64,000 nt of DNA from Candidatus Latescibacterota bacterium (GTDB lineage Bacteria > Krumholzibacteriota > Krumholzibacteriia > WVZY01), in contig CAWBQK010000018.1 of assembly GCA_963791045.1 (NCBI GenBank), forward strand, positions 64,001 through 128,000. The letters run 5' to 3'. The translations under genes and the position numbers were made by a program. Shown here one piece after another: positions 3,101-56,258 of this stretch. How positions within the stretch are numbered: the stretch's first letter is position 1; the number at the start of each line of letters is the position of its first letter. The notes under the pieces are model-generated. The model made no database searches, was not told the origin of the DNA, and worked only from the letters and a program-made list of their open reading frames with translations.

Positions 3101-3891
3101 GAGTTGGAAACAGCCACCCGTAGATAGGAATCGTTGGTCGACGTATTCAACTCCGTGAAGACGACAACCCAACGCCCCCGCCAGTCATCGTATATAACGC
3201 GGGGATCAAAAAAAGTGTTGCTCGATACCTGTCCGAAGTAGTCGAGGAATGTGCCTCCCTCGAGCCAGTTGCCGCATTTGTCGTATACGGCGACCATGTC
3301 GCTGGCAACAGCGACGAGATGCTCGGGGCCGACATCGATATCGGGGCTGGCGTTGGCGAAGCCGGTGAAGCCGATCGCGTTGAACTTGATCATGTCGCCC
3401 GAGACCATGCTTGCCGGCGCGACGGCCTCGCCCGCGGGAAATTTGGAGCCGGTGTTGCTCTTTTGAAAATCATTCGGAACGAATCGTTCTTCGGGGTTCA
3501 TTAGAGATGGTAATTGGGGAACCCGCGCCGCCATAAAGTCGGTAGGCCTCGTGGTACGTTTTGACCTGTCGACAACAACCGGGTGGCTTTCCATGGTCAT
3601 GGACTGGGGTTGGATGACGATGTCGGGTTCTCGCGCGGGAGTTCGCGCCTCGGCGATTAGTCTCGCCTGCCGGATGGCTTCGGCCCGTCTGCCGGGATCT
3701 TTTGGAAGCGGTGGGATGAGTTCGCCGTCCCTCCACCGGGCCTCGTCTGCTATTTCGTTTTTGTCAGAAGAATTTGATGCGGATTGTTCCTGGGCGGATG
3801 CGTTGTTCGTGGTGACGAATCCCACGCCGGCAAGGACGCCGGCTGCCAGTAGCAGGGAACAACATACCCAAAGACCACGCGTGTGTCTCAT
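121..3891 (-). CDS. Secreted multidomain protein (1256 aa): putative beta-propeller, BACON-like Ig domain, three ~150-aa beta-sandwich repeats, T9SS-type C-terminal sorting domain
   Basis: N-terminal signal peptide and GGGGG RBS. SPDIDVGPEH...FDPRVIYD domain; YTVENAG...WHINTTADWLT...GQLLPGASQDVTF is BACON-like. Three repeats share (A/V)R(V/L/I)Y.A....R. C-terminus PNPANG...IYDVLGRRV...LASGVYFLKL...RKFVVTH. Confidence 0.85.
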   Translation of the reverse strand: MRHTRGLWVCCSLLLAAGVLAGVGFVTTNNASAQEQSASNSSDKNEIADEARWRDGELIPPLPKDPGRRAEAIRQARLIAEARTPAREPDIVIQPQSMTMESHPVVVDRSKRTTRPTDFMAARVPQLPSLMNPEERFVPNDFQKSNTGSKFPAGEAVAPASMVSGDMIKFNAIGFTGFANASPDIDVGPEHLVAVASDMVAVYDKCGNWLEGGTFLDYFGQVSSNTFFDPRVIYDDWRGRWVVVFTELNTSTNDSYLRVAVSNSSDPTEGWLAVYIISWNAPTNGFADNMYIADDPEALYITYNRYDVSTYSFKGTTISVIPKDDLYQPGSVSYTSFTGSTNPGDASAAFAIRPAQMNSWAGYTYLLNNKYQGGNIGTVWRISGTVSSPVLDGFSIGIYPYETPPAMQQPNGTFIRSLDCRYTDAVYSGGILYGARAALEEYGEGDKSAVYVDKISTSALLTNTFWMNYPGTARAFPAIDVDEYSNLILTSAACSDVMYPSFIYDILSMFPLSTIESGTIAAGVADYSLGGGGTSGNPYRWGAYSGVALDHADSRTFWTHGAFASIDPVPSWTTKIGAYAYFANSDLSITPSTMQISTGFENGFFWPNTFTYTVENAGETMANWHINTTADWLTPSITGGQLLPGASQDVTFSLNRFAGYKEPGNHVSTIAFVNCTGSTPPLAWLLLAVVEPYECRGSVVWLEPEVETYYSGQMAGEHSLFVTALEDIDLCAVDPNVAGPTEPLTVRVYEADGNTRGPLLAENTSYAPNSVFGHEFIPIGIELEACQDYEIAFEISSSLYRAYANEIDVTYPYDVAGLLRVREGAFNGDAEGTNWCPYITILASSTSKEWTGHTTDLQPDGPVHETSATDTQLGLFVGALENMRLTSLGFEADLSRGTEIHARLYEASGNTRGDHVCYGAATVETGGMASHEVFLHANLENGQDYNLQLSFQGDGFYPAVNQFDVSLPDTVDGVIEVRKAESNGYLSTNIPHFWINWDDYANGGYPFDLAKASDGIPPPFSQIGGNLDHDAFVESMNTTQVYGLGVMADIPEGEILLARIYSATETGRDALMAESLIYTSGPGMRWHDVPMAFEWTGGEEIDISFVCANVNELPHWEDSTGFPFTPYGAIQVNDAGLAGDRFYTPYVHMRVHGCDNVPTGIGDDTPSFSPMVVKPPVPNPANGVVRFDYSVDQPAVAEMAIYDVLGRRVAIVFADEQIPAGSGSAQFDASTLASGVYFLKLETPKMAVSRKFVVTH

Positions 3892-3933
3892 GATTCCCCC
3901 CTTGGGTGCTGTGTGTGACGCTGAAATGTGTTA

Positions 3934-3949
3934 TGTGAATTATATCACA
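3934..3949 (-). promoter_or_regulatory. Extended -10 promoter (TGaTATAAT) inside a perfect CRP-type palindrome TGTGA-N6-TCACA
   Basis: TGTGA(3934-38) ATTATA TCACA(3945-49). The minus strand reads TGTGATATAATTCACA, about 45 nt upstream of the 3891 start. Confidence 0.65.
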
Positions 3950-3994
3950 AAAAAGGTGATGCTGGAATCACTTACACGCCCGCTGCCCGGCCTG

Positions 3995-4036
3995 AAAAAC
4001 GCAGAGGCGGCGGGGTCTAGCCCCGCCGCCTCTGCG
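3995..4036 (-). terminator. Intrinsic terminator of the giant gene
   Basis: Perfect 16-bp stem CGCAGAGGCGGCGGGG / CCCCGCCGCCTCTGCG with 5-nt loop. AAAAA at 3995-3999 gives a U-tract on the minus strand, 48 nt past the stop at 4084. Confidence 0.9.
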
Positions 4037-4083
4037 CCGTTCTATGGTTGCTTTGTTGGGTTGGTTTGTTGGTTTTGTTTTCG

Positions 4084-7000
4084 TTACTTGAGAATCACCA
4101 TCTTTCTGGTTTTGACAAACGCTCCGGCCTCGAGCTTGTAGAAGTACACACCGCTCGCGACCCGTGAGCCGTTGTTGTCATGACCGTCCCAGACCACCTT
4201 GTACACGTTTGGCTTCTTCTGCTCGTCGACCAGAGTTCTCACCAGGCGTCCGCCGACGTCGTAGACCCTGAGCCGAACGTCAACCGCATCGGGAACCTTG
4301 AACTGAATCGTGGTCGACGGGTTGAACGGGTTCGGGTAGTTCTGTGACAGGTCGAACACCTTTGGGAGTTCGGAGTACATTATGTCCGGCGTCTCGATCG
4401 GGATCACCCCGGCGTCGAGGATCTTGGCCTGGTTGATGTCCCGGGCGATCTTTCGCGCCGTCTTGTCGTTGATCGTGTTTCCGTCGTCAATCATGTTGTC
4501 GACAACAGTGATCGCCATCGAAACCGTCGCATTGTCGCGCGACGCCTTGTCGCCGAGATGGAGTTTGCCCGACGCAACGTTGAAGAGAAGCGAGAGAAGT
4601 TCCTGCTTCGCGTGCGCGAGTTCGGTCATCTTCCCCTTCAAGTTGAGCAGGTCCTTTGCCACGGTCAGCTTGTCGATGCATTCTCCAGATGACGGAGGCT
4701 GGTAGACTTCTACCGGGTTCATCCGGTTGGTGTTGAAGTGCGTCTCGATCAGATCGAGGTAGTCGCACAACATTGCCGCGTCGATTTCGGGATTGCCCTG
4801 GCCGGACAACGCGAGTCCAAGCTGATGCTTCCAGAAACTCATCTTCCGCGGATCCGGGATTATCGTCTCTTTTATCAAGTTGAATTCGATATCCAACTGC
4901 GTGCCCGGTTCATAGGTGATGAGAGTCTCCTCTGAAGCGACTGTATAGCCTAGTGGCGTCACGATGGTGAGGTTGTAGACGCCAAACGCAAGGTCAAGGA
5001 CATAAACGCCGTCGTCATCGGTGATCATCGTGGAGACCAGCTCACCCGTACCCAGTTCGAACGCGTCGATTTCGACGCCGGGAACCGGTGTCGCCGCTAC
5101 GGGTTCGTCGGTTACGACGCGCCCCGTTAGCTCAGTCTTCGTGCCGAAGACAGAGACGGTGTTGTCGCCGGAATTAGTCACGATGAAAGTGCCGTCGATT
5201 GGGCTGAATGCAATGTTCGACGGGTCTTCACCGGCAACGAGCGTATCGACTAGCGCCACCTCAAGCCGTGTGGGCGGAAGATCGGTCCCGTCCTCGATTA
5301 CACTGACCGCGTTCTTGACGGTGAGCGACGCGACGATGATGACATCGGTAGATTCCTGGATCAGGTAGAGAAGACCGCCGTCAGGTGATATGCCGACGGT
5401 TCTCGTTCCCGATCCGGTTGTTACGCCGGCGACGACCTGGTCTTGTGTAGGGCTGTCCGGATGGATGTCAAAAATGTTTACAACGCCTTCCGTCGTAAGC
5501 AGGATGAGGAATGCCCCATCGGGCGTTACCGCGACGGTTCGCGTCGCGCTCCCGGTGGTTACATTCGACACAACCGAATAACCCGAAACAGACATCACCA
5601 GGTACCCCGAGTCGGTTCCGAGGTACAACAAACCGCCGTCGGGTGTGATCGAAACAGTCCGCGTTCCCGTCGACGTTTTTGGGTTCGAGACAACCGAGTG
5701 GAATGTCACACTGTTCGGATCTGTGTCGAGAACACTCAGATCATTCGATCCATAATTGACCACGACAAGCCGATCACCGTCCGGCGTAATCGCGAGATCT
5801 GTGGGCGCCTGGCCGACACTGATGGCGTCGACGACGTGGTGCCGCTCCGGACTGGCGGGATCGATATCAAAGACTGTCACGGTTCCGTCGACATGGTTGG
5901 CGACATAACCAAGCGTTCCCTCCGGGTTGAGAGTGATTGCCACCGGGTTCTCACCTACAGGTATGCTCGGCCAGGCAATCAACTTTGTGAGGTTGATTGG
6001 AATGACCCTGTTCGCGTACGGACTCACCCCGTAAGCAAACGCCCCGTCCGGCGAGATCGCTACACTGCGTGTCGCAGAACTTGTCGATACGTTGGCGACC
6101 ACATCATCCGCACGAACCGCCTCGGGATCAATCACGGTGAACCCGACGGCGTTCGACGTATCGGGAATCTCGGTGTCGATCACGCGAACGGCGATGTAAC
6201 CGATCGGCGCGTCGAGCGGGACGATGGCGTCGATGAAGTCTTTGCCGACTTCACGAAGTGTCGCCTCGGAATAGTTGAAGATCACCTTGTTCAAAGAGGG
6301 GTCGGGGTTGAAGCTCGCTCCCGAAAGCACGAATGGTGCGCCCCTCGATCCGCTAGTCGGCGCGATGGATCCGAGCGTTATCGGCGGGAGCGCTTCGGTC
6401 ATGAATGTCGAGGTCACCGGTTGGTCCAGTGCGCCGCCGATTTCGTCGAGCACGCCCGTCGTAACCTCAATCATATATGTCGCCGTTGGTGCGAGTACCC
6501 GGCGCGGCGACAAGGAAACCCGCCGGTTGAAATCGGAGAACCCGATTACCACTGGTATCGGGACGAGATCGCCGTCGTGCAGGAATACGGTGGTGTCATC
6601 GATCGTCAAGGGATCCACGGGCCTGCTGAATGTCACCTGTATTGCTGTGGTAGCACTGACATACGTTTGCTGGTCCACGGGAGTTACCGACGTCACAGTC
6701 AGCGGAAGCGTCAGTGGATCGTCCAGGGCATCCGCTGTAAACGTGAGAGGCGATCCGACCAGGCCCGACGATGTCGCCTCGACCGTATGTGCGCCGAACC
6801 CGATAACGCCGCCGAGCCTCCACTCGACGCCGGCGATTCCTTCGTCATTTGTGGTTACCACATGCGTCGTAGAACCCGTGGCGTCAAAGTAGCCGCCGCC
6901 TGTTGTCACGGTGAATGTCACCGGCACGTCGGCGACGGAACCGCCCGATCCGCTTACCTGGACCTGGATGGGTCGGGGAAGCGGTTCGTCGATCACGCCC

Positions 7001-10000
7001 GTCTGACCATCGCCGGATAGAATCGCGATGCCCTGAACGGTGCTGAAGTCGTAGATAAGGAGATTGTCACTCGACTCCGAGAGGCTGTAGAACACCGACG
7101 CGTCTGGCGCATAAGCGTTATCCAGTGTGGAGAGGTGATCGGGAAGATCGCCGGCCTGCTGGATGAGCGCGAGGGCATCGGGATTCGTGGTGATGTCGAT
7201 ATTGAAGTACCCCTCTTCGAGGACACTTGCCACAGCGCGGTCGCCCCGCGGTGAAACATCGATATTGTCCGCAGACAACGGCGCCGCGCCCCCAAGAGGA
7301 AGCGTCGTCGTCATCACGGGCGCCGCCGGGTCGGAAGCATCGACCATCACGACCGAGCGGTTTGGTGCCGGTATATCTCCCGAGGTGAGTACCAGGCAGC
7401 GCTCGCCGTCCGGTGTGAAAGACAGGGAGACCGGAATCTCCTGGGGCGCCGCGCCGGGAAGCGTGAGCGTCGAAACAATCGTCTGATAGGCCGGGCTTCC
7501 CGGGTTAGTGTCCATCACGAGCACAACGGCCGGGTCGGAATCATGTACCGGGAGGTACACGTAATCGCCCCCCGGGTGGAATGCCATTTCGTGGACGATA
7601 CCGTTTATATTGCCGCTCGCCAGTGCGATCGACGCGACCACCTGGTATTCGGTCGGGGATTCGATCACGATATCGACGAAATGCACCTGGAAGGTGCCGA
7701 CGTCGGACACGAGAAGCCTGGTCCCATCGGGGCTCAATGCCACTCGGGAAATATCGGCGCCGGATATACCGGCGAAATCGATACCGCCGATGTCAGTGAG
7801 GAAATCACCGCCCAGCGGGTTGACATCGATAACTCTTACCGCGCCGGCGCTGGGGATCGCGACAAATGCGCGGTCGCCGTCGAGTGATATTGCAATGTCT
7901 CCGGCCTCTGCGCCAAGATCCACCGACCCCGAGTACTGGTGGTAGCCGGGTTTGTCGGGATCCGTCGCCATGATATGGAGGCCTCCGGTTCTGTCCCCGA
8001 TGGCGAGGAAAGCGCCGTCGGGAGCCGCACAGAGAACCGATCCACCGTCACCCGTGCCCGAGGGCGTGCCGGGGAGCGCCGCGGCGAGCCGGAGGGCATC
8101 GTCGAGTGTCGAACCAAGGACGTTGAAGAAGGAGGCGTTGGATCCGAGCGACGTTCCGTCGGTGTCGACCGCGATTACCGAGACGGGGCCGCTCGCCGCG
8201 CCGGTCGGTACCGAGACAACAACCGAACTCTCGGTCACCCGGTCGGGTGACGCGATGACATCGTCGAACGACACCACTATCTCCGAGTCGGCGACGAAAT
8301 CAGAACCCGAGAACACGAGTGTCGCTCCGACCGGCCCCGCTGATTTAGAAATTGTGGAAAGCGACGGGCCCAGTCCAATGGTGGTAACGACGAGCCGCTG
8401 CTCCGCTTCGGAGACGGTAAATGCATATTCGCCGTCGGACGAAATCTCGATATCGACGGGGTTGATCGGAAGCGGTATTGTCGCCGCGACCGTCCGGTAT
8501 GTCGGTGACGATTCGCGAAGATCAATCGCGTTCAATATGTTGAGTTCTCGGTTGACCGCGTGGGCAAACGCGCCGCCTGGTGTGACCGCGATGCCCCTCA
8601 ACGTCCCGCCGGTCCGGATGGTCTGGACGCAGACATAGTCGTCGAGCGACACAATATTCACTACACCTTCTTCGTCGGATACATATGCACGGTGACCCAC
8701 GGGATCAACCGCAACATCCCTGGGATCGGGGCCGACGGAGATTTCTCCAATAAGTGTCTTGGAGACGAGATCAAAAACGAGGAGCTTGCCCGTTCCGCTC
8801 AATGCGAGGAGACGTTCACCTGTGGGATCGGTAGTCATCTCGCCGCGGATGTTGGGGTCGGGCGTGAGAACACGTCCAACCTGGCTCAAGAAACTCGGGC
8901 TCGTTTCATCGACATCCCAGATCTGAATTTCGCCTTCATCGGTTGGAATGAACGCGTGGTTGCCCCGCGGGTTCACGAGAATGCCGCGCGGTCTTGCTCC
9001 AATCGGCGTTTCGCTGAGGATGCCGATCGAACCCGGCGTCGCATCGATGCGGTAGAGTGTTTCGGTTACCCAGCTCACACCGTAGACGCGGTTTCCCGCC
9101 GGATGTCGCGTCGAGGTCATTCAATCCCCCGGCAATCGGAAGCGATATCGCCGTGAGATATCCGCCTATCGAAGGATCGACCACAACCGCTTGGGCTCCG
9201 AGATCCGTGGCCATAAAGGCGTAGCTGGCGTCGGGCAGTATCGTGAGCGCCCGCGGCGTTTCGCCGAGGACCGTCACGCCCGATTCGAACCCTTTGGGAA
9301 CTTCGTCGGAAGAGAGGATCGTAAATTGAAGGTCGTTGCTCGCCAGTCCCTGTGTGTGATTGGTCACATTGACAACGCCCGAAGTTGCGCCGACGGGAAC
9401 GGTAACGACAAGCTGTGTGGCCGAGGCCTTGCTTATTTCAGCCGGAATTCCATTGAAAACGACTGTGTTGTTTGACGGCTCGGAATCAAAACCCTTTCCG
9501 TTGACCGAGACGATGATGCCTTCGATGCCTTTGCTCGGCGCCAGGCTCGTGAGCGCCACCGGTGGCTCGGCTTCGGTCACAAAGGTCATGTCGAACGGGG
9601 TTTCAATGCCGTTTCCGAAATTGTCCTGAAGCCCCGTATCGAGGGTCAACCTGTAGGTCGTCGAGAACTCGAGACCGACCGACGGAACGTATGCGATGAG
9701 CATGTCGTCGTTCAAGAACGCGGCGTTACCCAGAGCGAATTCTCCCGTGGCTTCATTGGTGAGACTGAAATTTCCCTGAAGAGTGGCGCTGTTCACGGGT
9801 TCGTCGAATGAAATCAGAATCGATCCGCCGATGGACACATCAGTGGCGTTGGCCTCGGGGACCGTCGAGACGATTTGCGGTCCGACGTCGTCGATATTGG
9901 TCGTAAAATCGGCGATCGTTCCCGGACCACCGGCGAAGACGGCCACAGCCGTTCTCGCCTCCGCATCATCATATTGGGATTCCGCCGCGTCCCACCATTC

Positions 10001-13000
10001 GGGCACGAATACCGTGTTGGCCGTCGCCGAAATGACATGGTTGATATACCCTGGTTGGATGTATCCGACGGCCTTGCTCCCGTTCAACGGATGGATCCCG
10101 ATATAATAATCGCCATCGGGGAGACCGATAAATGTGTAGCTGCCGTCGTGCGGAAGCGTGTACTCGCACGCCACGGTATCCTCGTCCGCCGCGTCGATCG
10201 CGAACACCGCCGCACCGGCGAGAGGTCCGCCTGTGTAGCCATCCGTGATAACGCCGCTCAAACGGCTCGCCGCGGCGATGTCGGCCGTGGTTCCGTATGC
10301 TTTGAAGAGTGTGATTTTATCCTCGGTGGCGAGTGTCGCCGCCGCGGTGTCGGGCGGGAGGACAAAGTACATCGTCGAGGATAGCACTGCCGAGTGGGAC
10401 AGCCCGAATACATGGCCCGCCTCGTGGGTGGCCACCGCGTCGATGAGCGTGCCTTCGGCCGGGCCGGCGGATTCGGTCCTGAAGCTTTTGCTTCTGTTGA
10501 AGATCATATCCGAATCGCAAATTTGTCCTATGCGGTACCATTCGTTATTGAACACCGTCGGTTCGGTGAACGACGTGGTGATTCCCACGGCGAGAACGCC
10601 GAGACCGAAATGAAACTCAGTGTCCTCGAATGTAACGAGGTTGATCCCGTCCATCGCGTCGGCGTTCTTCTGCGGCGTGGTGCCGCCGTAGACCACCGTT
10701 GCGTCGGTTCCCGGTATGAGCGTCCATGCGTTCATTGCGTTTTGTATCGCCGTGAAATCGCTCCCGTCGAGGATGCCGGGCGCCCCGTCTTCGTTTATGT
10801 AGTACGTTATCGGAAAGTCGGGACGTTCCCAGTACTCGACGTGACGTCCGCCGGCGCCCTCGTCGATGCAGCCGTCGCCGTCGCTGTCGAAGTTGAGCGC
10901 GCTTTCAAACGGACACAGATCTTCCGGATCGGGAACGCCGTCATCGTCGGAGTCCCAATCGCTCACACTGTAATTGACGCTTGCCGTGTTGTTCGCCTCA
11001 TCGGATTCGTCGATGATCGAGAGCGCGTCGGCGGTCGCCGTCGCGGTGAAGCTTCCGATGTAAGGGAAGTTGTCGATGCGCGTGACCACAACCGACTCGC
11101 CGCCCTGGATGTAGTCCTGATACTTCATGAGGAAAGCGTCCTCGCCGCCGCCTCCGGACTCCCCGGGGAGAATTCCCGATGTTTGTCCGGCGACAAAGAG
11201 TCCCTCGTTCGACGCCGCGACGCCTGTTAGCTTGTCGTGCGTCGTCGTCCCGACAATCTCCGTCATGAGTTCGCTGCCGTCGAAATCATACCGGCGAACA
11301 AACCCGTCGTTGCCGCCCAGGGGGGCGTGTCCGGGAAGGTTCGATCCGACGTATCCGACGACGACGAGGGTCAGGTCCTCGATCGCGAAATCAAGACCGT
11401 GGTCGATGAGAGATGATCCGAACTGGCGGATCCAGACGATTTCGCCGAAGCGGTCGATACGGGCAACATACGTGTCCGACAGCCCCGCCGAGGTGTTGCC
11501 GGGGAGGGTGTTCTGTGTGTTGCCGATCACATAGACGGCGGATGGGTGGACTTCGATCTTGGTCACGTTGTCCCAGTTCGCGCCGCCGAACTGCATCGTC
11601 CAGATCTCGTTGCCGTCCAGGTCGCATCGGCGGACATACGCGTCCTCAGCGCCTTCGTGCGTCTCACCGGCAAACGCGAAATCGACGCAGCCGCCCATAT
11701 AGATCCCCGACGCGTCCGCGGTAACGTCATATGGATACTCATAACCAGGTTGGTCAAACACCTGGGTCCACACAACATTGCCGGCAACGTCATATTTCTT
11801 GAGAAACGCGTTTGTGGATCCGTAGTCGCCGCTTCCGTCGTGGGTGTGGCCGAACACATAAAGGGCGTTGTCGTACAGACAGAGCCCGGCGGCATTGTCG
11901 ACTCCCGAGAGCGAACCGAATTCGTCGGTCCAGAGTTCGGTGCCGTCGAGGTCGTATTTTCTCACCCATGCGTCGCTGTAGCCTGATCCGTGGGTCTGAC
12001 CGGGCAGGTCACCCCAGACCTCACCGCACGTGTAGACGCCCGTGTCATCGACGGCGATGCCCATGCCGCGGAGTTCGTCGCCGGTGCCGCCAAACTGGCG
12101 GGTCCAGACAATGTTCCCGGCGTAGTCGAATTTCGTGAGAAAGTAGTCCGCCTGGCCGTAGTTGGTCTCGGCGGGGAAGGCGCCTTCGGTTCTCCCGATG
12201 ACATAGACGCCGCTTGTGTGACAGGCCACCAGGCCGCCCGTGTCCATCGCGTCGGTTCCGAACTGGGTCGCCCAGACGTCGGAGGGGAATGGGAGGTTCT
12301 CGCCCTCGACCTCATCGGCGATTTTGAAGTTCAATGTTGTCGAACGGATGGGGATGGTGGTGCTGTTCAACACCGTCGCGTCGAAGGTGATGGTGTCGTT
12401 GTCCGTCGGGTTGAGCGGCGTTCGTGTAATGCTGGTGATCTCGAGGTCGGGCTTGTCCAACTCCGCGACTCCAATCAGCACGGAGGAAGTGTTGTTGTTC
12501 TCAACGCTCTCACTCACCTCATCATCGTAATCCACGCCAATCATATTGTTATAGAGTCCCTCGGTCGGGATGTTCTCGAATCGGGTGAATGAAATTGTCT
12601 CGCCCGGCTGGATGAGATCTTCAATCTTTTGAATGAATGCGTTGGTTGTGTCTCCAGGGACACCGGGCTGATCGTTGAGGAATCCACGTGCCCCGGCGAC
12701 ATAGATACCAGAGTTGTCTACGGCCACCGCGTAGGCCGCTTCGTTGTGTTCGGTGCCGAATTGTTGGGTATTCCGCAGTGTTCCGTCGGGGTCGTATCGG
12801 CGGATAAAGCCGTCGATGCGGCCGTAGGCTGTCTGGCCGGGAAGCGGGTAGAGCAATCCGGAGATGCCCACGCGGCCGCTCGCCACGATACATTCGTTGA
12901 AGAATGTCAGGTCGGTGATATGGTCCCATCCGTTGGTGCCGAACTCATCCGTCCACAGGAGGTTGCCGTCACGATCATACTTGCGGATAAACGCGTCGGT

Positions 13001-15220
13001 ATCGCCGGGAAACGCGCCCCCGCAGTAACCGGCGATGTAGACGCCTTGCATGTCGATGGCGATAGCCGTTGGTTGATCGGGACCGTCGGTGCCGAATTGG
13101 TAGAGCCACTCGGGCGGTGTCACCGATTTTTGCACAAATATGTCATAGTCTCCGGAACTTGTTTGTCCGTCAAAGGCTCCGTTTGTGAATCCGACCACGT
13201 ATGAAAAACCGGTCTCGTCACGAATCCACTCTATGGCTGCGTCTTCGCCCGCCGTACCAACTTGCCATGTGTTCCCTTGTAAACCCTCGGGGCTGAAGAG
13301 CGCAAAAAACGCGTCGCTGCCGCCGACGCTTGTTTGGCCGGGTAACGTCCCTGCGGTCTGCCCGCAGACACTGATATGGCCGTCCCGAGTTGAAATCCCG
13401 AACGCCACATCGGTCGTCGTAGTTCCAAATTGACGGGTCCATAACTCGTCGCCGTCGAAGTCATATTTTCGGACGTACGCGTCACCACCGCCGAGATACG
13501 GCTGACCGGACAACGAACCGGAAACTCCTCCACAAACATAAATGCCGAGGGCGTCCGCGCAGATATTGTGCGCGTACCCGACATTGCCCGTGCCTCCGTA
13601 CTGATCCGTCCACACAAGATTCTCGTTGAGGTCATATTTCTGGACAAATACATCCCAGTCTCCGGTGTTGGAAAAACCGGGGAATGTCCCCTTGGTTCTT
13701 CCTACGACATAGAGGAAGTCTTCGAAAATGATTGCTTTCAGGATATAGGTCTCGTCGCCCGCGTCAAATTCGTGGGCCCATGTGCCGCCTTCGGGTATTT
13801 TGAATTGCTTCGCATCGTTGCCGACATACCAGTTCATGGTCGACGCCCAGGCGGGCGCCTGACCGGTGTTGGCAATTGTCGCGTCGAAACGAATGAGGTC
13901 GGCGGTTGTGGCGGCCAGCTCTGCTGACGATTCGTATTGTTGAACCGTCAGGTCCGGCTTTGGCGCGGGGTCAACTATCTGTTCTGTGGCCCAGATCGAA
14001 ACATTGTCAAACATTGGCGCCGCTGTGTGGGTGAGTCCGGAGCCATATGTGCCCGCCCAGGCATAAAACATATCTTTTGCGACAAGTCGAATGCGCATCC
14101 GTGCGGCGCCGGGGGCAATGAGATCGGTCAAATCGTACCCAAAATTTCTGAAGCCCCCGGCCGAATATGAGATGCCAGAGGTTCTTTTCCACGCCCCGCC
14201 TTCCTCCACCGGCGGGGCTGCCACCTCATAATCGAAAAAGACAAGGTTGTCGAGCGGAAGGTTTGCGTATACGTCAAATCTGAGGGTCAAAGAAGATACA
14301 TCGGTCGGAATGTCTATCACCGGTGACTGGATTCCAATTTTGATGTGGTCGCGTTCCGGGTCGAAGGGAAAGACGCCGGTAACGGGGTCGTAGGCCACCC
14401 ATGACCAGGTTCTGTCGGGGCAAGGCAACGAAACTTCACAGGCCGGTGTCGCTTCCAGACGGTAATCATAGTGGGATGGAGGCGGATACACGGATGGAAT
14501 CCACCCGTCCTCACCCGTCTCGAACGTATCGGCCGCGTATCCCGTGACCTGGACGCGGTCAAGCCGCGCCGCCCCGTTGGAGTCCCATTGTCCGTCCAAG
14601 TCGCTCCATGCGCCGTCGGTATTGACAATAAAGCGGATTTCCACTGTCTGATTCTGATAATAGCTGATGTCGTGCGAATGGTTGACAAATCCGCCCGAGA
14701 TGCCATCGTAGGATGCGAGAACGACCCACGTTTCAAAATTGTCATTCGACACTTCGACATAGGTATAGTCGTAGCCCGGTTCGGTGTCGTACTGGATGTC
14801 ATATTCGAGTGTGATTGGGCCTGTCCCCAGGTCGAACGTCTTATAGACGTACTGTTTCCAATCGTTTCCGTAGCCCGGCGGAGTATCGAGCCAGATCGCG
14901 TCGGTGCCACACCACATTACACCTTTGTTGATGAGGCCGTCCTGATAGAAGGCGTGGTGCCAGAACGTGTCCTCCTGCGCAAGACCGTTGAAGGTGGCCC
15001 AACCGGCCGCGTCTTCGTAGAAGTCCTCGAAATAAACCCGATGAGAATTCGGAGTTGATGCGAGGTTTCCGCCGAATTGCGATTCTTCGACGGGCGTGGG
15101 CGGCGCCGGTTCCTTTGCATAGGTTGTTGAACCGATTGCACAGCACACGAATAGAAGAACCGCCAGACCGACTGTCCATCGTTTAACAGAGATATTGTTG
15201 TTATGACGTTTCATGACCAT
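4084..15220 (-). CDS. Giant secreted protein (~3,700 aa once one frameshift near 9090-9105 is repaired): jelly-roll, two CARDB domains with inserted SBBP propellers, TSP3-like repeats, matrixin (M10-type) metalloprotease, Big_5/IPT Ig domains, YVTN-type propellers, FlgD-Ig/CTD
   Basis: ORFs 8936..15265 and 4084..9120 join inside one propeller blade (GGLNDLDAT|PAGNRVYGVS). Signal peptide only on the first ORF (ATG 15220 after GGGGGGG). CTD QNYPNPFNPSTTI...ASGVYFYKL only on the second. HEAGHVFGLSH at 10394-10426 plus STMY Met-turn. Confidence 0.85.
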
Positions 15221-15236
15221 TAACCCCCCCAAAGGT

Positions 15237-15794
15237 CTAGCGGCGGCCGAGCGCCTGGTCGACAAAAGTATCGACGGTTACTTTCTGTGATTTAGTCGGC
15301 CGTTTGATCCCGTCAGCGCCGGAGGCGCCGACGAGCTCGACCCCGTCGAGCGGGGGCGAATCGACATAGGCGACGCCGGTATCGTGGTCGCGTTCGATGT
15401 GGAATTTTCCCTGCGAAAAACCGGTCACCCGGAAGTCGCCAGTATCCTGGCGTTCGGCAAAGAGGAGCACCTCTTCGCCCGGCGCCCACTGGAGGGCCCC
15501 GTGGACGGTGACGCGGACGTTATCGACCACGCCCCCGAGCTGGATGATATCCACCACAGGTTCGTCAACGCCCTTGTAGGTCTCGTCGACACCCACGCGT
15601 GTTCGCGTAAATATCTTGGAGTGGTCGTCGTTCCAGTAGGAATCGACACTGACGACCTTTCCACGGACGACGAGTGATGATTGTTGGCCAAGCTGCTGTG
15701 GGCTTTGGTAGAGAATCTGAGTGGCAAATGCGGTGGATGCGATCAATACAAACGAAAGGCAGAAGAGAATAACTCTTCTAGAGCGGCGTTCCAT
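15237..15794 (-). CDS. Secreted 185-aa protein, TIMP/NTR-like OB-fold domain (type often fused N-terminal to bacterial matrixins)
   Basis: ATG 15794 after GGGGGG RBS; signal peptide ending AFA. Pattern SSLVVRGKVVSVDSYW...IFT...V.V.ETYKG...IQLGGVV...V.VHGA...GEEVLLF. Stop lies 16 nt before the giant gene start. Fold assignment is from motif recall. Confidence 0.75.
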   Translation of the reverse strand: MERRSRRVILFCLSFVLIASTAFATQILYQSPQQLGQQSSLVVRGKVVSVDSYWNDDHSKIFTRTRVGVDETYKGVDEPVVDIIQLGGVVDNVRVTVHGALQWAPGEEVLLFAERQDTGDFRVTGFSQGKFHIERDHDTGVAYVDSPPLDGVELVGASGADGIKRPTKSQKVTVDTFVDQALGRR

Positions 15795-15984
15795 GTGGAT
15801 CCCCCCTTGGAATGGCATGGTGTGCGAGGACTTGAGTGTCATCGCACGTGAACTGGATTGAAAAACGTGTAACTGTGCGGGTGCAACAACACCAGCAGGA
15901 TGGAATCGAGGCGCGGCTCCGCGAGAAGGCGGAGCAAAGAAGTATGGTTGAGTCCCCCACGTTACCCCCCAGGAAACGAATGCA

Positions 15985-18900
15985 TCACCAGGGCGACTTT
16001 TCGAGCCCGATGACAACAAACGGGGACCAATAGAAAGGATGTGCGTAACGCGAATCATCCAGCATCACAAGCCGTGCCTCGTTCAAAGCGCGGCTGGCGG
16101 GACGCTTTTTGCGCAACATGCGCTCGTAGAATTCACCCATCAAAATTGCGGTCGATTCATCGGATACCGGCCACAGGCTGGCGACGATTCCCGGCGTTCC
16201 CGATGCGAGAAACGCCCTGCTCAATCCCACGACGCCCTCGCCGCGACCGATCCGGCCGCGGGCCGATTCGCAAGCGGACAACACAACGATACCCGCGTCG
16301 GTATTGAGCGAGAGGATTTCGAGAGTGTGGAGATAGCCGTCTTCCACACCCGCGGGGTCGGGGCACAACGCGATATTCGATGCGGCCGGTTCGACGGGAT
16401 CGATGATACCGTGTGTCGCGAGATGGATGACGCGAACCGACCCGCCTCTTATCTGTTCTTTGAAGACCGCTTCGTTGGCGTCCGCGCCGAATCGGACGGT
16501 TTTTTCTTTGTCATCAAGGGAAGCGCTTATGTTTTGTACCTCACCGCGGGTATGGGGAAGCGGCTCGAGTGTGTTTGTCGCGCCGGCCGCATCCTGGAAG
16601 AGGGAGTAGTCCGGATCGCCCATCGCGAGGAGTTCCGAATCGTATTTTTTCTTTTTGTTTGATTCTTTCAAATTCAGATAGATGGAGGCCGATGGCGCGT
16701 ATGTGACGGAGTGGGTCCTGGCGAGGAAGGGAAGTTCCTGCCACTGTGTCGAATTGCCGGCCACGTCGTCGAGCAACGCTTCGAAGGGCAGCTCGAAGAG
16801 TATTCCATCCGGGATGATTATGAGTTCACGGGAATTGGCGAGACGATCGCCGGCCGGGGCGACGAGTACTTCGTAGAGGTGGTGTGCCGACTCTCGAAGC
16901 GCGTCATCGCCCAGGCCGGGGCGGGAAATCGCGTCCCTGAATCGGATGATTTCTTCGCGTAGTACGGTTCGGTTTGGGATCTGGTAGAGATCGCAGCCTT
17001 TTCTGTCTATCGCCCACATCAGGGACGTGGTGTCGCCGAGAGCGTATGCGAGAAGTGTCGTTCGCTTGGATAGCTTGTCGCGCAGACAGTCGGGTTCGGC
17101 AATAACGGCTGCCGCCGGCGCCAGACCCGATACGGAGGCCTGAACGCGCTCGTCTCTCAAGGAGGCATAACGGTTCTTCAAGTCGCTCTCCCGCTGAGCG
17201 TAATCCGGCGCGTCCGGATCGAGCTGGTAGAGCGAGTCAATGAGCGCCTCTTCGGCCGCAGTATGCTCGGCGAGAACCGATGTTCGCATCAGGTCGAGGA
17301 GCCCGCGCGCCTTGGCCCTTTCGACGGTTTGAAACGCGTATGCCGACCAGATCCCTTCGGAATCCTCGCCGGCGAGTCCCGCGTAGAATCGCGCGACCTC
17401 TTCATAATAGAATCTGCGAACTCCCGCGAGATAACCGGTGCGAACCGACGTGTCGCCGATGTCTTTGCGCGTATCATCGAGAATTCCGAGCGCCCTTTGA
17501 TAATAAACATGCGCACTGTCCGGGTTTGATTTCTCGTAGCTGTGTCCCATCCCAAACGACCACGTCAGTGTCAGGTCGCCTTTGTTTATTTGCTCGATGT
17601 CAGTACTGATTCTGTCGAAAATAGTCCGGGCTTCATCGGGACGGCCGGCCACCACCAGGACATTGGCGATTCCGAGCTGGTCGATAAAGACGTTCGACTC
17701 CGGTCCTTCTATCCGGTCTTTTTCGAGCACGGCGGTCCAGATTTCAATAGCACGATCGTAATTGCCCCGATGACGCTCGAGTTCGGCGGCCAGCGTCGAA
17801 GCCTCCCGGGCCAGTTTGGGATTCTCGAGTTCAACGGCAAGCGCCGCGGCTTTATCGGCGTATGAGAGGCCGTTTTCAAACGCGCCAAGCTCTTGGAGCA
17901 GGTACCCCAGGTTGATATAAGCTTCGAGTTCAAACAACGGCATCTGGTGTTCCTGGCTGAGACGGACCAGAGCGAGAAGTTCGTCACGCGCGCGCTCGAG
18001 CTCGCCGATTCGGAGATACGTAATTCCGCAATTCCTGTGGTAGACGATTGATTGTTCGGCATCGGCATTGGAGACGAGAAGCCCCTTCACGGCATCGAGT
18101 TCCTTGAGGGCGTGGCCGTATCTATAAGCGTCCGCGTAGTTGAGGGCGAGGTTGTTGTGACAGATCATCCGGCGTATCGGATCATCCATTGTCACGGCGA
18201 TTTCAAGGGCCTCGCAGAGGGCCTTGTTCGAGTCCTCGATCCTCCCCATTTCGGCGTTCAAGCTGGCGATGCTTGTGAGGAGTTCGTACTGCTTGGCGGT
18301 GTTCCCGGTGCGGTTCACGACGGGGAGTGCGCGTTCGTAGGCGTCGCGCGCCTCGACGATTCGTCCCAGCGCGAGGTGGGTGTTTCCGAGATATGTGAGT
18401 GATGTGGCAAGGCCGCCGATGTCCCCCGTACGCTTGCGGATATCGATCGCTTGTGTATAGAAATCAAGGGCCGCCGCGTAGTTACCAAGCTGGTAATTGA
18501 CACTTCCCATCCCGTTGAGGGTTTTGCCCTCGAGGATCTTGTCGTCGATAGCTCGTCGTGCGGCGAGCGCGTGCCCGTATTGTTCGAGAACCCCGGGGAA
18601 GTCTCCCGCATACCAGTAGACCACGCCGAGACTGCCCCAAATCACCGCGACCGACCGGTCATCGCCGATCGATTCATGTAGGGTTTTTGCTTCGGTGAAA
18701 AGCGCGATTGAACGCTCAAAATCACCGGCATTTCTCACTTCGACGGCCTCTTGTTCAAGAGATTTTGCTTTCCGGCGGATTGCGCGCTGATCGGGGCTCC
18801 ACGACCTGCAGACTCTCGTAAATTTGAGCGGCGCTTCCGAGCCGCCGGTATCGTCGTGGATAGATGCCAATCGCTCGGCAAAGTCGAAGTTTTCGTTGGC

Positions 18901-19143
18901 CGCTTCGGTTTGTCCCTCATCGCCTATCTGTATCGCAACCTCGAGGAGTTGTCCAACGGCGGCTCCGACCAGGACCGAGTTGTCCCTCACGTAGCCGGCC
19001 AGGACGTCATCGCCGAACGTCGTTGCGATGGAGTCGGCTTCGACTATAAAACGCGTAACAGGATCGTCAGCGTGGGCTGGAAAAGTGAAAAAAAGAACAA
19101 ATATAGAGACAAGAATAGCGAGTACAGACCTGTTTGGACACAT
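15985..19143 (-). CDS. TPR + CHAT domain (caspase-like, clan CD) protease with N-terminal signal peptide
   Basis: Multiple TPRs; LIIIPDGILFELPFEAL; catalytic His in IHLATHG and Cys in VVLSACES; VASLWPVSD; HPFYWSPF. N-terminus RSVLAILVSIFVLFFTFPAHA-D. Start could be 19176. Confidence 0.92.
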   Translation of the reverse strand: MCPNRSVLAILVSIFVLFFTFPAHADDPVTRFIVEADSIATTFGDDVLAGYVRDNSVLVGAAVGQLLEVAIQIGDEGQTEAANENFDFAERLASIHDDTGGSEAPLKFTRVCRSWSPDQRAIRRKAKSLEQEAVEVRNAGDFERSIALFTEAKTLHESIGDDRSVAVIWGSLGVVYWYAGDFPGVLEQYGHALAARRAIDDKILEGKTLNGMGSVNYQLGNYAAALDFYTQAIDIRKRTGDIGGLATSLTYLGNTHLALGRIVEARDAYERALPVVNRTGNTAKQYELLTSIASLNAEMGRIEDSNKALCEALEIAVTMDDPIRRMICHNNLALNYADAYRYGHALKELDAVKGLLVSNADAEQSIVYHRNCGITYLRIGELERARDELLALVRLSQEHQMPLFELEAYINLGYLLQELGAFENGLSYADKAAALAVELENPKLAREASTLAAELERHRGNYDRAIEIWTAVLEKDRIEGPESNVFIDQLGIANVLVVAGRPDEARTIFDRISTDIEQINKGDLTLTWSFGMGHSYEKSNPDSAHVYYQRALGILDDTRKDIGDTSVRTGYLAGVRRFYYEEVARFYAGLAGEDSEGIWSAYAFQTVERAKARGLLDLMRTSVLAEHTAAEEALIDSLYQLDPDAPDYAQRESDLKNRYASLRDERVQASVSGLAPAAAVIAEPDCLRDKLSKRTTLLAYALGDTTSLMWAIDRKGCDLYQIPNRTVLREEIIRFRDAISRPGLGDDALRESAHHLYEVLVAPAGDRLANSRELIIIPDGILFELPFEALLDDVAGNSTQWQELPFLARTHSVTYAPSASIYLNLKESNKKKKYDSELLAMGDPDYSLFQDAAGATNTLEPLPHTRGEVQNISASLDDKEKTVRFGADANEAVFKEQIRGGSVRVIHLATHGIIDPVEPAASNIALCPDPAGVEDGYLHTLEILSLNTDAGIVVLSACESARGRIGRGEGVVGLSRAFLASGTPGIVASLWPVSDESTAILMGEFYERMLRKKRPASRALNEARLVMLDDSRYAHPFYWSPFVVIGLEKSPW

Positions 19144-19331
19144 AGTTGCGACCGTCGGCTGAATTGCTGCTGACAATAATTAGTGAATATGTATTGGGAC
19201 TTTGCACAATGTGCTGCGGGTGCCGTGCTGTGTCCCCCCCCAACTGCTTGTAAATAGTCTAGCCCAGAATGGAATGTGCGTCAAGTGTTCCCTGAACACC
19301 CACGACGATTTGTCGGTGTCATTGCGGCGAG

Positions 19332-19345
19332 TTGATGCCGGTCAA
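19332..19345. promoter_or_regulatory. FNR/CRP-family-like box (1 mismatch)
   Basis: TTGAT GCCG GTCAA against consensus TTGAT-N4-ATCAA, in the divergent CHAT/kinase spacer. Confidence 0.45.
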
Positions 19346-19420
19346 CGGGCAATTATGTTCGTCGCACGGTCGAGGATTGAAATGACCGGTTTTGAATCAT
19401 GATTTCACCGAGGTTTGTTC

Positions 19421-19434
19421 TTGATTTGAATCAA
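19421..19434. promoter_or_regulatory. FNR/CRP-family-like box (perfect)
   Basis: TTGAT TTGA ATCAA, an exact TTGAT-N4-ATCAA match, in the divergent CHAT/kinase spacer. Confidence 0.55.
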
Positions 19435-19617
19435 TTAGGGATGATTCCGCCGCCCGGGACCGGTTGAATACGGCTTGAGACAGCGTGTACTAAGTGTCAG
19501 GTTCTCTGGTGCTTCCGAGATTGCTTTCAACATCCGATCTTTTTTGTTACGCTAGCTATCGAGGGTTGGATTCATCGACTGTGAACCGGGGCTGTAACGC
19601 CGCGACAGGTGGAATCA

Positions 19618-22600: not shown

Positions 22601-22776
22601 TACTAGCTGTTTATCCAAAACGAGGCCCGTCGAACTATGAGCTCGCCCTCGTGTACTGGGAATTGGGCGATAGGGCAAGGGCGCATGAACATCTCGAGAA
22701 AGCGCTCGAACGATGGAAGGACGCCGACCCCGATTTCGAACCGGCGAACGAAGCGAGACAAAGATTGTCCGAATGA
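19618..22776 (+). CDS. Hanks-type Ser/Thr protein kinase with 3 TM segments, TolB_N-like domain and C-terminal TPR array
   Basis: IGQGGMGVVY, VALKFL, HRDIKSSN, DFG, GTIAYMSPE, DIWALG. Hydrophobic helices follow the kinase, then a KSLLVFYLD... TolB_N-like segment and many TPRs. Confidence 0.95.
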   Translation: MVGKSILHYTIVEKIGQGGMGVVYKAEDTRLKRTVALKFLLPHILSSDEEKSRFVHEAQAAAALHHPNICTIYEINEADDQTFISMAYLEGEGLNERIDRGRLKPVEAVRIALQLARGLKAAHEKNIVHRDIKSSNIMVAVDGRATIMDFGLAKSVKQTHATQRGAQVGTIAYMSPEQTRGDAVDHRTDIWALGVLLYEMVGGRRPFVGDYDEAVIYSILNEEAEPLDALAPDAPEDIWIAVRRAIAKSPDNRYQTTNELVEDLEILYDDLRTGTSTRRRVLHASRIVQPKKPVTKTWFSSRVFSTLAIYLVASWFLVRAIGWVAGRMEFSPRWADVALIGFLSLIPTVWILAARDRAVPRIWRRVVKVGIPANLVATAVLLVALFAGRDLGATTKRVTVLDEEGKPIERMVAKSEYRKSLLVFYLDSRMEDTTKLWVGGGMMLLLQVDLYQDGYVYAMSSIDQQFRRQVRDAGFSSWFDAPWSLKRQTAERAHLDYLVTGSFEFEDSALVVELLLHESQSGRLVMQREFRGESIFEVTDEASVALRRAMGFSEGHIDAIRDLPVSEIFTGSVPAVRHMCLGMFGALSLGDWAAGVEELELSVAEDPTFAWGHFTLNQLYMANNVADKADGSMQLAMRHIYRLPERMQFMLKSAYYDHVGDPEKRLAVVQMMTELYPEDLTARMMLADLRLRRDERALAIEQFEAILEIDPSRTEFMSQIGEQYREMGRFDDARRVYDEYLLRFPNDGAVWHARGLVDEVEGRYEDALAHYEKTLVLDPNNSGVLCDIGDIEGKIGDDIKALEMFDRAMEVANTPQDRARVHESLQRFHMHRGQTDLAIRDLYAWWDERAKYLPPVVAEMEKLGDLGQFVRAGKTQTALDEYELIASRVVPPFDGMLPLGRMAIYFELEEPDSIETAVRSLRIYIADNQAEFLRDDVDWAEGVMEEARGNYESAIRAYERKLEIDPTEAGVYRFIGRCYRKLGRYDEAIESLERVLAVYPKRGPSNYELALVYWELGDRARAHEHLEKALERWKDADPDFEPANEARQRLSE

Positions 22777-22843
22777 GACTCGCGATAGAGTCAATTGCCG
22801 GGCCGGCAAGGCTTGCAGCCGCGGCAAACAATCCTTCTCTGGG

Positions 22844-23863: not shown

Positions 23864-23914
23864 GGGGACGCTCCGTGAGATCGGGGTTCGTTTTGTCGGT
23901 CGTTTGAAGGGAGT

Positions 23915-25501: not shown

Positions 25502-25792
25502 CTTATATGACTCCGTTAATGATAAATCAGTGACACAAAATTGACGAGCGGTCGATATGCAAATCCGCCTCATTAGTTTGTGAAATCACGAACAAGCTAT
25601 TCGAATTGAACAAGTTATACAATAATTGATTGGCATCTTGAACGCGAATACAATATTTTTCAATCTGAGTTTATCTATTATAGAGGAATCAGCAGCACTT
25701 CAACGAAATCAGTTTTTAAAGACCGGCACACCGCCATCATCGACGGTGTGTAGTCGCATTGAACACGATCGCAACCGGAGGAAATCCACAGA

Positions 25793-28471: not shown

Positions 28472-28476
28472 GAATT

Positions 28477-37782: not shown

Positions 37783-38091
37783 ACAAGTCCCCCTTTTGAA
37801 AAAAAACACAATCGCGATGACGGACAGGTTTGTCCGAATGTCAGGAATGAGAGAGATGAGGTTTGATCGATGGATGCTGCGCCAGTGGCGATTAGTATAC
37901 GCTAAATTGCTTGTATTTTCAAGGAGTATGAACGGTTTAGGCAGGCCAAAGTCGGTTTGAAAGCGAGGTGTTGACGGCGAAACTGGCGGCGTGCAATTTT
38001 GACCAAAGTTCGATACAATTCGGTGCATGGCGAAATGTTGGGGGCAGCCACGAGGAAACTGCGGCCGAATGAAATGCACAAAGGAGCGGGT

Positions 38092-50377: not shown

Positions 50378-50400
50378 TATTTTGGCTGGGGAGGTCAAAA

Positions 50401-51276: not shown

Positions 51277-51331
51277 CCGCTCTCCGTCAGTGAGCGGAGA
51301 GTACGAAGAGGTAATCAGGTAGTTTTCTCGA

Positions 51332-52471: not shown

Positions 52472-52539
52472 CACCACGAGGTATTACAAGCATGTCCGCT
52501 CAAAAAAATATCAGGATGGAGAAGGGACGCGACTGGGCG

Positions 52540-54849: not shown

Positions 54850-56258
<1,409 letters not shown>

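Follow-up and report, generated by a model that had tools for sequence, protein, structure and literature searches.

How does a bacterium keep an exported metalloprotease in check, and could a caspase-like peptidase take part in that control? The question is raised by a stretch of 64,000 nucleotides from an uncultured organism, Candidatus Latescibacterota bacterium (assembly GCA_963791045.1, contig CAWBQK010000018.1, positions 64,001 to 128,000), referred to here as the window and numbered from its first base. Three neighbouring genes on the minus strand of the window encode an exported TPR-CHAT peptidase, a secreted protein of 185 amino acids, and a giant cargo protein of the type IX secretion system (T9SS) with a peptidase domain of the M10 family. 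A reading made earlier from the letters alone (the sequence-only reading) had proposed that the three form an extracellular protease cascade. Comparison with related genomes identified the three genes as a conserved, specifically linked cassette of a Latescibacterota/Krumholzibacteriota-type lineage. The overall explanation put forward here, that this conserved three-gene cassette serves to control the protease, stands in our judgement at even chances.

Layout of the three-gene run

The segment 19176-4084 of the minus strand was filled by four long frames in the open reading frame (ORF) list: a TPR-CHAT frame of 1,063 amino acids, the frame of the small gene, and frames of 2,109 and 1,678 amino acids belonging to the giant. 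The elements of the run, all on the minus strand, are as follows.

15985 to 19143, minus strand: TPR-CHAT peptidase gene (ORF list, Pfam, orthologue alignment)
15795 to 15984, minus strand: spacer of 190 nt between the CHAT gene and the small gene (ORF coordinates)
15237 to 15794, minus strand: small gene, 185 amino acids, predicted TIMP/NTR fold (translation, family alignment, model, fold searches)
4084 to 15214, minus strand: gene of the giant M10/beta-propeller/Ig-repeat T9SS cargo (ORFs, Pfam, homologue alignments, matching contigs)
3995 to 4038, minus strand: intrinsic terminator ending the run (sequence, fold energy)

The three genes were co-oriented and the run was closed by a strong terminator, as the sequence-only reading had stated. 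The terminator hairpin, which starts 46 nt past the stop codon of the giant gene, consisted of a stem of 18 pairs followed by U5 (-43.9 kcal/mol, z -6.25), and none of 200 shuffles was equally good. The RNA of the spacer between the CHAT and small genes had an ordinary fold (z -0.52), and no promoter-like or terminator-like site was found there by a scan that performed at about chance level overall and overlooked the real terminator. No Rfam family was matched in 3700-19700. In relatives, the gap between the CHAT and small genes ranged from -51 to 441 nt.

Signal peptides had been claimed for all three products and were called again here by eye, from hydrophobic N-termini followed by A-x-A sites, with no predictor behind them; N-termini matching the predicted signal peptides were conserved among orthologues. 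The host assembly (3.66 Mb, 21 contigs, 81% complete) encodes T9SS machinery, with PorU at 554.7 bits (cut-off 420) and SprA_N at 64.1 bits (cut-off 27), and contains about 98 matches to the T9SS sorting tail, or C-terminal domain (CTD).

The small protein and its predicted fold

The signal peptide of the small protein is of the A-x-A type and encoded at 15723-15794; it is followed by Thr1 (codon 15720-15722, assigned by eye), the predicted first of 161 mature residues, and the protein is free of cysteine. The AlphaFold2 model (pLDDT 81.8, pTM 0.72) showed a beta-barrel, followed towards the C-terminus by a strand and a helix, and it matched the five-stranded NTR/OB-type barrel of the TIMP N-terminal domain. 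Residues 148-168 of the model formed a long, disordered loop of low confidence, which was variable in the family alignment.

When the model was compared with the Protein Data Bank (PDB) by Foldseek, TIMP-1 chains scored best (E 7.5e-4), followed by TIMP-2, NtA and NTR domains. VIA-align matched it to the N-terminal domain of TIMP-1 (3ma2_C) with Z 11.1 and a root-mean-square deviation of 2.8 over 115/119 residues, to that of TIMP-3 (3cki_B) with Z 10.9, and to NtA with a Z of about 10. In a fold search independent of Foldseek, rows 1-13 were all TIMP/NTR modules (Z 10.9-7.5), with generic OB folds appearing from Z 6.9. On the basis of the model, the small protein is predicted to have a TIMP/NTR-type fold. 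In several VIA-align rows, model residue 25, the first after the A-x-A site, was paired with TIMP residue 1, and this position (+1) is occupied by Thr or Ser in all 45 close family members and in 104 of the 111 distant ones. Identity to TIMPs was 14-17% in the structural alignments and at most 24% over the ~100 columns that Foldseek aligned to TIMP-1.

The small protein had been described from its letters as TIMP-like and OB-fold-like. The fold part of this description stood, with N-TIMP-1 at Z 11.1. Membership of the TIMP family (PF00965, MEROPS I35) was ruled out, because the protein has neither Cys1 nor the disulfide framework and the Pfam TIMP profile stays below threshold; the fold is thus TIMP-like in a protein outside the TIMP family. 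A collection at 90% identity contained 466 relatives, all unnamed and without a Pfam domain, and the profile of the family matched 13,155 clusters (50% identity) at E <=0.001 and 4,821 at E <=1e-10. As leads only, the named ESM Atlas clusters nearest to homologue P0088 were TIMP (0.90), NtA (0.85) and TIMP/NTR (0.83). The type of C-terminal tail of the small protein did not follow adjacency to CHAT.

Linkage, co-occurrence and fusion of the small gene with M10

Forty FCB-type loci with 41 copies of the small gene were compared. A same-strand M10 followed within 6 kb in 29 of the 36 copies that had at least 1.5 kb of downstream DNA, and at many of these loci it started ~100 nt past the small gene, right after the signal peptide of the giant. 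Among the exceptions, L028 and L038 had the order CHAT, giant, small, with the small gene directly after the giant; in L013 and L035 the small gene lay behind the tail of a giant; and L043 held a truncated copy. The same neighbourhood was found in Acidobacteriota, where small homologues at 25 loci were 28-38% identical and an HExxHxxGxxH protein of 450-680 amino acids lay directly downstream in 21 of the 23 loci whose sequence reached far enough in that direction. Four of five such proteins tested passed the Pfam M10 cut-off.

Across 201 genomes of the phylum, searched with thresholds of 1e-15 and 1e-30, 47 held both the small gene and an M10 domain of this type, 4 the small gene only, 2 the M10 only, and 148 neither. 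The two are also fused in nature: a family of 240 Vicinamibacterales proteins, some of them annotated 'matrixin family metalloprotease', combines in a single polypeptide a signal peptide with a small-like domain, M10 and fn3 repeats, and in this family hhalign recovered the small domain at 98.9% (E 2.7e-17) and M10 at 95.8% (E 7.6e-9). Since the small gene pairs with the short acidobacterial proteases and is found in this fusion, it is tied to the catalytic domain and not to the accessory domains of the giants. The small protein and M10 very probably form a functional pair.

In Pyrinomonadaceae (L045:13208-16033; L048, L053, L055), the small-M10 pair was followed by one or two short ORFs and then by an M16 (insulinase-type) peptidase of 940 amino acids. 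The window, too, contains an M16 pair (32436-35254), a parallel that is probably coincidental.

The giant M10 protein and its frame break

The features of the giant gene are the following.

10270 to 10990, minus strand: conserved block of two Cys-containing Asp-rich (calcium-binding-type) repeats, then the M10 catalytic domain (translation, Pfam, 39-domain alignment)
9094 to 9103, minus strand: one-base frame break (homologue frame switch, matching contigs, codon count)
4093 to 4338, minus strand: T9SS type A C-terminal sorting domain (Pfam Por_Secre_tail and FlgD_ig; TIGR04183)

The 2,109-amino-acid frame encodes a MAM-like N-terminus, CARDB, SBBP propellers, M10, CarboxypepD_reg, Big_5 and TIG domains, and the 1,678-amino-acid frame encodes TIG, Big_5, propellers of the lactonase/YVTN type and the T9SS sorting tail (TIGR04183, 39 bits against a cut-off of 23). 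The matrixin signature that the sequence-only reading had reported, HExxHxxGxxH with a Met-turn, was recovered: the zinc motif HEAGHVFGLSH is encoded at 10394-10426, the Met of the Met-turn at 10370-10372, and the whole motif reads HEAGHVFGLSHS ... STMY in translation. Matrixins typically have Ser next to the third His and Met-Tyr in the turn. Pfam Peptidase_M10 (PF00413) matched with 34.5 bits (cut-off 24), covering only profile positions 78-159, and the search of the organism's own genome gave 38.2 bits. In an alignment of 39 M10 domains, H189, H193 and M207 were invariant and E190 and H199 nearly so. The nearest PDB sequences were stromelysin-2, MMP-9 and karilysin, as weak matches (E 0.025-0.07) at the zinc site only.

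The Asp-rich repeats (D.D.DGV.D..D.C and FD.DGDGC.D; 10855-10990, residues 1-45 of P0123) immediately precede every M10 of this type. They hold two near-invariant cysteines and are followed by an invariant Arg and a near-invariant His (RH.EYW), and they may serve in calcium binding, in latency or in docking. No cysteine-switch pro-domain was evident by eye ahead of M10, and the two conserved cysteines fall in the Asp-rich repeats. Some giants have two M10 domains, the first without the catalytic Glu (HSAGH in L011, 12873-13544; HAAGH in L016, 12916-13581), and the single M10 domain of L007 (6855-7529) reads HEALH, with a zinc-binding His replaced. Judging by these motifs, the altered domains are possibly pseudo-protease domains.

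The giant had been put at ~3,700 amino acids. In the window as given, its gene consists of two overlapping frames in the ORF list, 15265-8936 and 9120-4084, a break that had been overlooked; dropping any single base of 9094-9103 yields 3,709 codons, and to that extent the length was right. All ten of the uninterrupted homologues compared, each longer than 2,900 amino acids, aligned straight through 9092-9102 with a change of frame there (tblastn), and two short-read contigs, one each from runs X3 and X4 of two studies and 95-99% alike, both lacked one base at 9099. Judged from these alignments, the two frames form one gene, and because the homologues read through and the two near-identical contigs lack that base, the extra base near 9099 is taken to be either a mistake of the assembly or a frameshift particular to this strain.

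The genome holds two paralogous cassettes, and these showed breaks of their own. The cassette at C15:270352-281745 has CHAT, a small gene and an intact giant of 2,506 amino acids, and its small gene shifts frame near 278003-278118. The cassette at C4:48956-62191 has the order small, giant, CHAT, with CHAT split over three frames and the giant over two ORFs. These breaks point to assembly indels or gene decay; that the paralogous cassettes are also frame-broken favours assembly indels, without proving them.

The TPR-CHAT protein and its linkage to the pair

Three parts of the TPR-CHAT protein were recognised.

19069 to 19143, minus strand: predicted Sec signal peptide (MCPNRS...PAHA, then DDPV; by eye and from orthologue N-termini)
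17497 to 18789, minus strand: TPR repeat region, about residues 130-560 of P0002 (Pfam TPR_12, TPR_1, TPR_2, TPR_MalT)
16006 to 16893, minus strand: CHAT caspase-like domain, residues 762-1057 (Pfam)

The gene starts at ATG 19143, with the listed ORF opening at an in-frame upstream TTG at 19176, and stops at 15985-15987. Pfam CHAT (PF12770) matched with E 4.7e-68 over profile positions 2-288 of 289. The catalytic codons are those of His922 (16411-16413) and Cys969 (16270-16272, P0002 numbering), and the dyad is intact, as had been claimed: H922, G923, C969 and E970 (the HG and SAC(E) motifs) were invariant in 16 of 16 aligned CHAT sequences. The orthologue N-termini were hydrophobic and continued with a conserved DPV..F...ADS in those of the 15 orthologues printed far enough. 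A T9SS tail was present on neither CHAT nor the small protein. The accompanying statement that CHAT proteins are TPR-gated was generalised too far from a few cases.

Linkage of this CHAT to the small-M10 pair was specific to one subfamily. The organism's own genome had eight CHAT matches, of which three were mutually close (E 1e-112 to 1e-205 against the domain of the window) and all lay in small/M10 cassettes (on C18, the contig of the window, and on C15 and C4); the remaining five were distant, were located elsewhere, and in 0/5 cases lay in such a cassette. The window-type subfamily was found in 44 of the 201 phylum genomes (CHAT-domain search, E <=1e-60). Forty-three genomes had both CHAT and the small gene, one had CHAT only (G162, at a contig edge), 8 had the small gene only, and 149 had neither.

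Among the 28 best loci with downstream DNA, the small gene lay directly downstream of CHAT in 21. In a hand tally of 44 CHAT loci in 43 other genomes, 25 had CHAT adjacent to and followed by the small gene, and in 8 the two shared a contig and lay no more than 12 kb apart in a different layout: small-giant-CHAT, CHAT-giant-small, a divergent order (four genomes of one family) or, once, beside a fragment. Linkage thus persisted across at least four gene orders. The sequence-only reading had named a lack of synteny elsewhere among the grounds for its rejection and had called for a gene-neighbourhood search in related genomes; at 33 of 44 loci the distance from CHAT to a small gene was at most 12 kb, and the trio stayed together, with CHAT and the small gene both present in 43 genomes.

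As a control, 62 distant CHAT loci from metagenomes were searched, and none had a small or M10 match within 4 kb; these CHATs were at most 54% identical over the best segment, most of them 25-41%, and the same hidden Markov models gave 67 and 60 matches in the positive set. The only close metagenome relative, L099 (59% identity), faced, in convergent orientation, the 3' end of a T9SS cargo gene resembling the giant, as judged by eye.

Relation to known systems

TIMPs are regarded as proteins of animals and as the sole endogenous protein inhibitors of matrixins (PMC9890683). The small protein resembles the animal TIMP/MMP system (MEROPS I35/M10A) in its predicted NTR barrel, in the alignment at residue 1 and in a partner with HExxHxxGxxHS and a Met-Tyr turn; the wider NTR module extends to agrin NtA, PCOLCE and complement C345C. 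Unlike animal TIMPs, it has no Cys1, no disulfides and no C-terminal TIMP domain.

The closest bacterial layout is that of the potempins in the KLIKK operons of Tannerella forsythia, described as small secreted beta-barrel inhibitors encoded immediately upstream of their target peptidases (PMC9890683). PotA, PotC and PotD have OB-folds, and karilysin is an M10 MMP-like enzyme (PMC9890683). Potempins are outer-membrane lipoproteins of 98-132 residues with a lipobox Cys; they inhibit by loops, PotA by a 'bilobal' mechanism, and the role proposed for them is self-protection of the producer's envelope (PMC9890683). As with potempin A and karilysin, the gene of a small secreted barrel lies here directly upstream of that of an M10-type protease. 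Unlike the potempins, the small protein has neither lipobox nor Cys but an A-x-A signal, a predicted TIMP/NTR barrel and a conserved free N-terminus. No potempin chain was among the matches listed in three fold searches of its model, and no direct comparison was made. The portion of the potempin article drawn on here mentions no CHAT component (PMC9890683), unlike the trio of the window.

Listeria monocytogenes Mtz-Tim is a secreted metzincin beside a protein predicted to be TIMP-like (Phyre2, ~60% confidence); the gene of Tim, a lipoprotein, follows that of the protease in a phage-derived locus with a CI/Cro-like switch (PMC8235301). Its authors knew no other record of bacterial TIMP-like proteins (PMC8235301), and our literature search found no bacterial TIMP-like/metzincin pair besides Mtz-Tim. 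Unlike the cassette described here, Mtz-Tim has no CHAT gene and no T9SS.

The folds of BamI and of the serralysin inhibitors AprI/Inh differ from the TIMP-like barrel. In Pseudomonas aeruginosa Mep72-BamI, the small adjoining partner binds a secreted metzincin and relieves its toxicity (PMC4334185). AprI inhibits by a bond between its N-terminal NH2 and zinc, according to the title of a paper cited in PMC8235301. The bond named in that title is the mechanism proposed below for the small protein. Mep72-BamI (type II) and AprI/Inh (type I) differ from the present system in their secretion routes and in having no caspase-like third gene.

Csx29 of the type III-E CRISPR Craspase is a TPR-CHAT protein with a His/Cys dyad that cleaves one dedicated partner on a signal; it is cytoplasmic and Cas-bound. 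The window protein has the same succession of TPR and CHAT with a His/Cys dyad. Its assignment as Csx29/Craspase was ruled out: the NCBIfam Csx29 score was 20 bits against a cut-off of 300, a signal peptide is predicted, and there is no CRISPR context. PADLOC returned for CHAT only generic TPR matches and a weak BovA match.

The sequence-only reading knew of no description of the combination. For the trio this held: literature searches, supplementary files excepted, showed nothing relevant among the papers listed that joined a CHAT domain with a metalloprotease, metzincin, matrixin, T9SS or these phyla. The pair within the trio is another matter, since a protease with a small partner or inhibitor encoded beside it has precedents (PMC9890683, PMC4334185, PMC8235301), and only the addition of CHAT seems undescribed.

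Proposed working of the cassette and its alternatives

What is shown above comprises the genes present, the predicted fold, the linkage and joint occurrence of the genes, and the fusion found in nature; the binding, inhibition, compartment and CHAT cuts proposed below are inferred. The giant would be a matrixin-type zinc endopeptidase, exported by Sec and T9SS and probably held at the cell surface, without a recognisable pro-domain beside its catalytic domain. The small protein would be a Sec-exported, cysteine-free barrel that binds the M10 catalytic domain and keeps the protease silent, its free N-terminus (Thr1, exposed by signal-peptide cleavage) acting TIMP-style. It would be a separately encoded safety catch, protecting the cell while the protease crosses the periplasm. 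It is read as an inhibitor because the giant has no evident pro-domain, the small gene adjoins M10, its counterpart has the position of a pro-domain in the fusions, the predicted fold is that of TIMP, and the free N-terminus is conserved. That the pair works by inhibition is slightly favoured.

The small protein might instead be a helper or a product: a chaperone that acts in trans on folding or export in place of a pro-domain, or a substrate that is cut to release an active fragment, in the way suggested for Listeria Tim. The fused small-like domain lies N-terminal to M10, as a pro-peptide or intramolecular chaperone would, and this position suits an inhibitor equally well, since pro-domains inhibit. 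The variable, low-confidence loop 148-168 is a possible cleavage site, the TIMP disulfides are absent, and Listeria Mtz is reported to cleave its TIMP-like partner (PMC8235301). However, the near-invariant Thr/Ser at the mature end, aligned to TIMP residue 1, would be needed by a zinc-binding wedge and not by a chaperone, and the gene-linked partners of secreted bacterial metzincins in the reports drawn on here are inhibitors or binders that relieve toxicity (PMC9890683, PMC4334185). We consider a helper or product rather improbable.

Under the inhibitor reading, CHAT would be a caspase-like cysteine peptidase that is exported by Sec, belongs to one dedicated subfamily and joined the pair in this lineage. 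It would regulate the pair by proteolysis, either removing the inhibitor or trimming the giant, and candidate cut sites are loop 148-168 in the small protein and, in the giant, the linkers between its domains. An action of CHAT on the pair is suggested because the subfamily is dedicated and the linkage persistent; that CHAT cleaves either the small protein or the giant is nevertheless put forward with considerable doubt. Because they have no T9SS tail, the small protein and CHAT probably stay in the periplasm, and the cascade, which had been called extracellular, is more likely periplasmic. By its distribution, CHAT is judged to be an accessory of those pairs in which the protease is a giant cargo.

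An alternative for CHAT is a periplasmic peptidase that processes or releases the giant, or a TPR scaffold or sensor that merely shares its regulation. LapG, which acts on the adhesin LapA, would be the model for such release. CHAT goes with the pairs that have giant T9SS cargo and was not detected next to the short proteases of Acidobacteriota; its position in L018 and L099 is after or convergent to the giant and does not adjoin a small gene; and no cassette has more than one CHAT, while several small genes often come with a single one (two for three in G079, one for three in G134). However, export takes T9SS cargo out of the cell, where a periplasmic peptidase could not reach it except in transit, and the commonest order is CHAT directly before the small gene (25/44 loci). 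This alternative is also unlikely in our estimate.

Linkage without function, by which abundant genes for exported proteins became neighbours by chance and were co-inherited in a narrow lineage, is highly improbable: the genome is indeed rich in such genes (98 CTD and 8 CHAT matches) and the shared ancestry of the compared genomes inflates the counts, but the small gene and M10 are also neighbours in a second phylum and joined in a fusion, linkage is confined to a single CHAT subfamily (3/3 against 0/5 of the other CHATs in the genome, and 0/62 distant loci), and this linkage survives at least four gene orders with matching presence and absence (43 both, 1 and 8 single, 149 neither).

Several observations weigh against a protease-control cassette built on a TIMP-like inhibitor. 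Cysteines were absent from the mature part in 43 of 45 members of the small-protein family, and the cysteine-free protein therefore has no counterpart of the TIMP disulfide that ties the N-terminal wedge to the barrel. Pfam TIMP (PF00965) was reached only below threshold and in 1 of 45 members (E 0.16); NtA also stayed below threshold (3/45 and 3/111 members, best E 2.4e-4), as did DUF4131 (22/45 and 17/111). Profile searches for a PDB sequence relative gave only chance-level rows. Listeria Tim is described as being cleaved and released by Mtz, and not as an inhibitor of it (PMC8235301). Small genes without an M10 neighbour occur in L008 and L014, and the second M10 giants of the tandems in L023 (17896-20349) and L024 (17913-20537) have no small gene of their own.

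No CHAT was detected at the acidobacterial loci examined or in 8 of the 51 small-bearing genomes, and at 11 of the 44 CHAT loci the small gene was on a different contig or missing, in some cases in nearly complete assemblies. Because CHAT is missing or unlinked in these cases, the small-M10 pair must be able to work without it. The compared genomes are related and not independent, and the counts overstate the evidence accordingly. The giant gene is frame-broken in this assembly, likewise parts of both paralogous cassettes.

In the tandems of L023 and L024, the second giant begins ~110 nt past the sorting tail of the first, and one small gene may serve both.

Taken to its full extent, the protease-control reading gives a three-tier counterpart of the MMP/TIMP system, in which a cysteine-free TIMP-fold inhibitor silences, in the periplasm, a giant matrixin without a pro-domain, and a dedicated, exported and TPR-gated CHAT arms the protease on a signal by destroying the inhibitor or cutting the complex. 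This fullest form is speculative, and we hold it to be the less probable outcome by a wide measure.

Surroundings of the cassette

A signalling cluster (19609-31149) adjoins the cassette and is divergent from CHAT. It and the other annotated regions of the window are listed here.

19609 to 22773, plus strand: Ser/Thr kinase with TPR repeats
23918 to 25573, minus strand: PP2C/SpoIIE phosphatase with FHA and GAF domains
25793 to 31149, plus strand: two Ser/Thr kinases with PD40 propellers
49434 to 58169, plus strand: Tad/Flp pilus cluster, complete-looking
121 to 3891, minus strand; 35386 to 38976, minus strand; 58772 to 60694, plus strand: further proteins with a T9SS-type CTD and little other annotation

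The Tad/Flp cluster encodes an A24 prepilin peptidase, TadE, RcpC/CpaB, a secretin, a TadG-like protein, a response-regulator/ParA-like ATPase, a T2SSE ATPase and two T2SSF proteins. The protein at 121-3891 has a weak BACON_2 match, and its gene has its own promoter-like TATAAT region past the terminator of the cassette.

Significance

A bacterial family with the TIMP fold, encoded beside matrixin-type proteases or fused to them, would change the picture of TIMPs as proteins of animals only, and the small-protein family would supply many candidate natural inhibitors of metalloproteases. The dedicated, exported TPR-CHAT offers a tractable case for the secreted caspase-like peptidases of bacteria, a largely open field, with a neighbourhood that names two candidate substrates. 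If the three-tier reading is true, CHAT would be the first caspase-like peptidase to activate a metalloprotease paired with its inhibitor, and the 13,155 clusters of the small-protein family would suggest that the partnership of TIMP and matrixin is ancient and widespread in bacteria.

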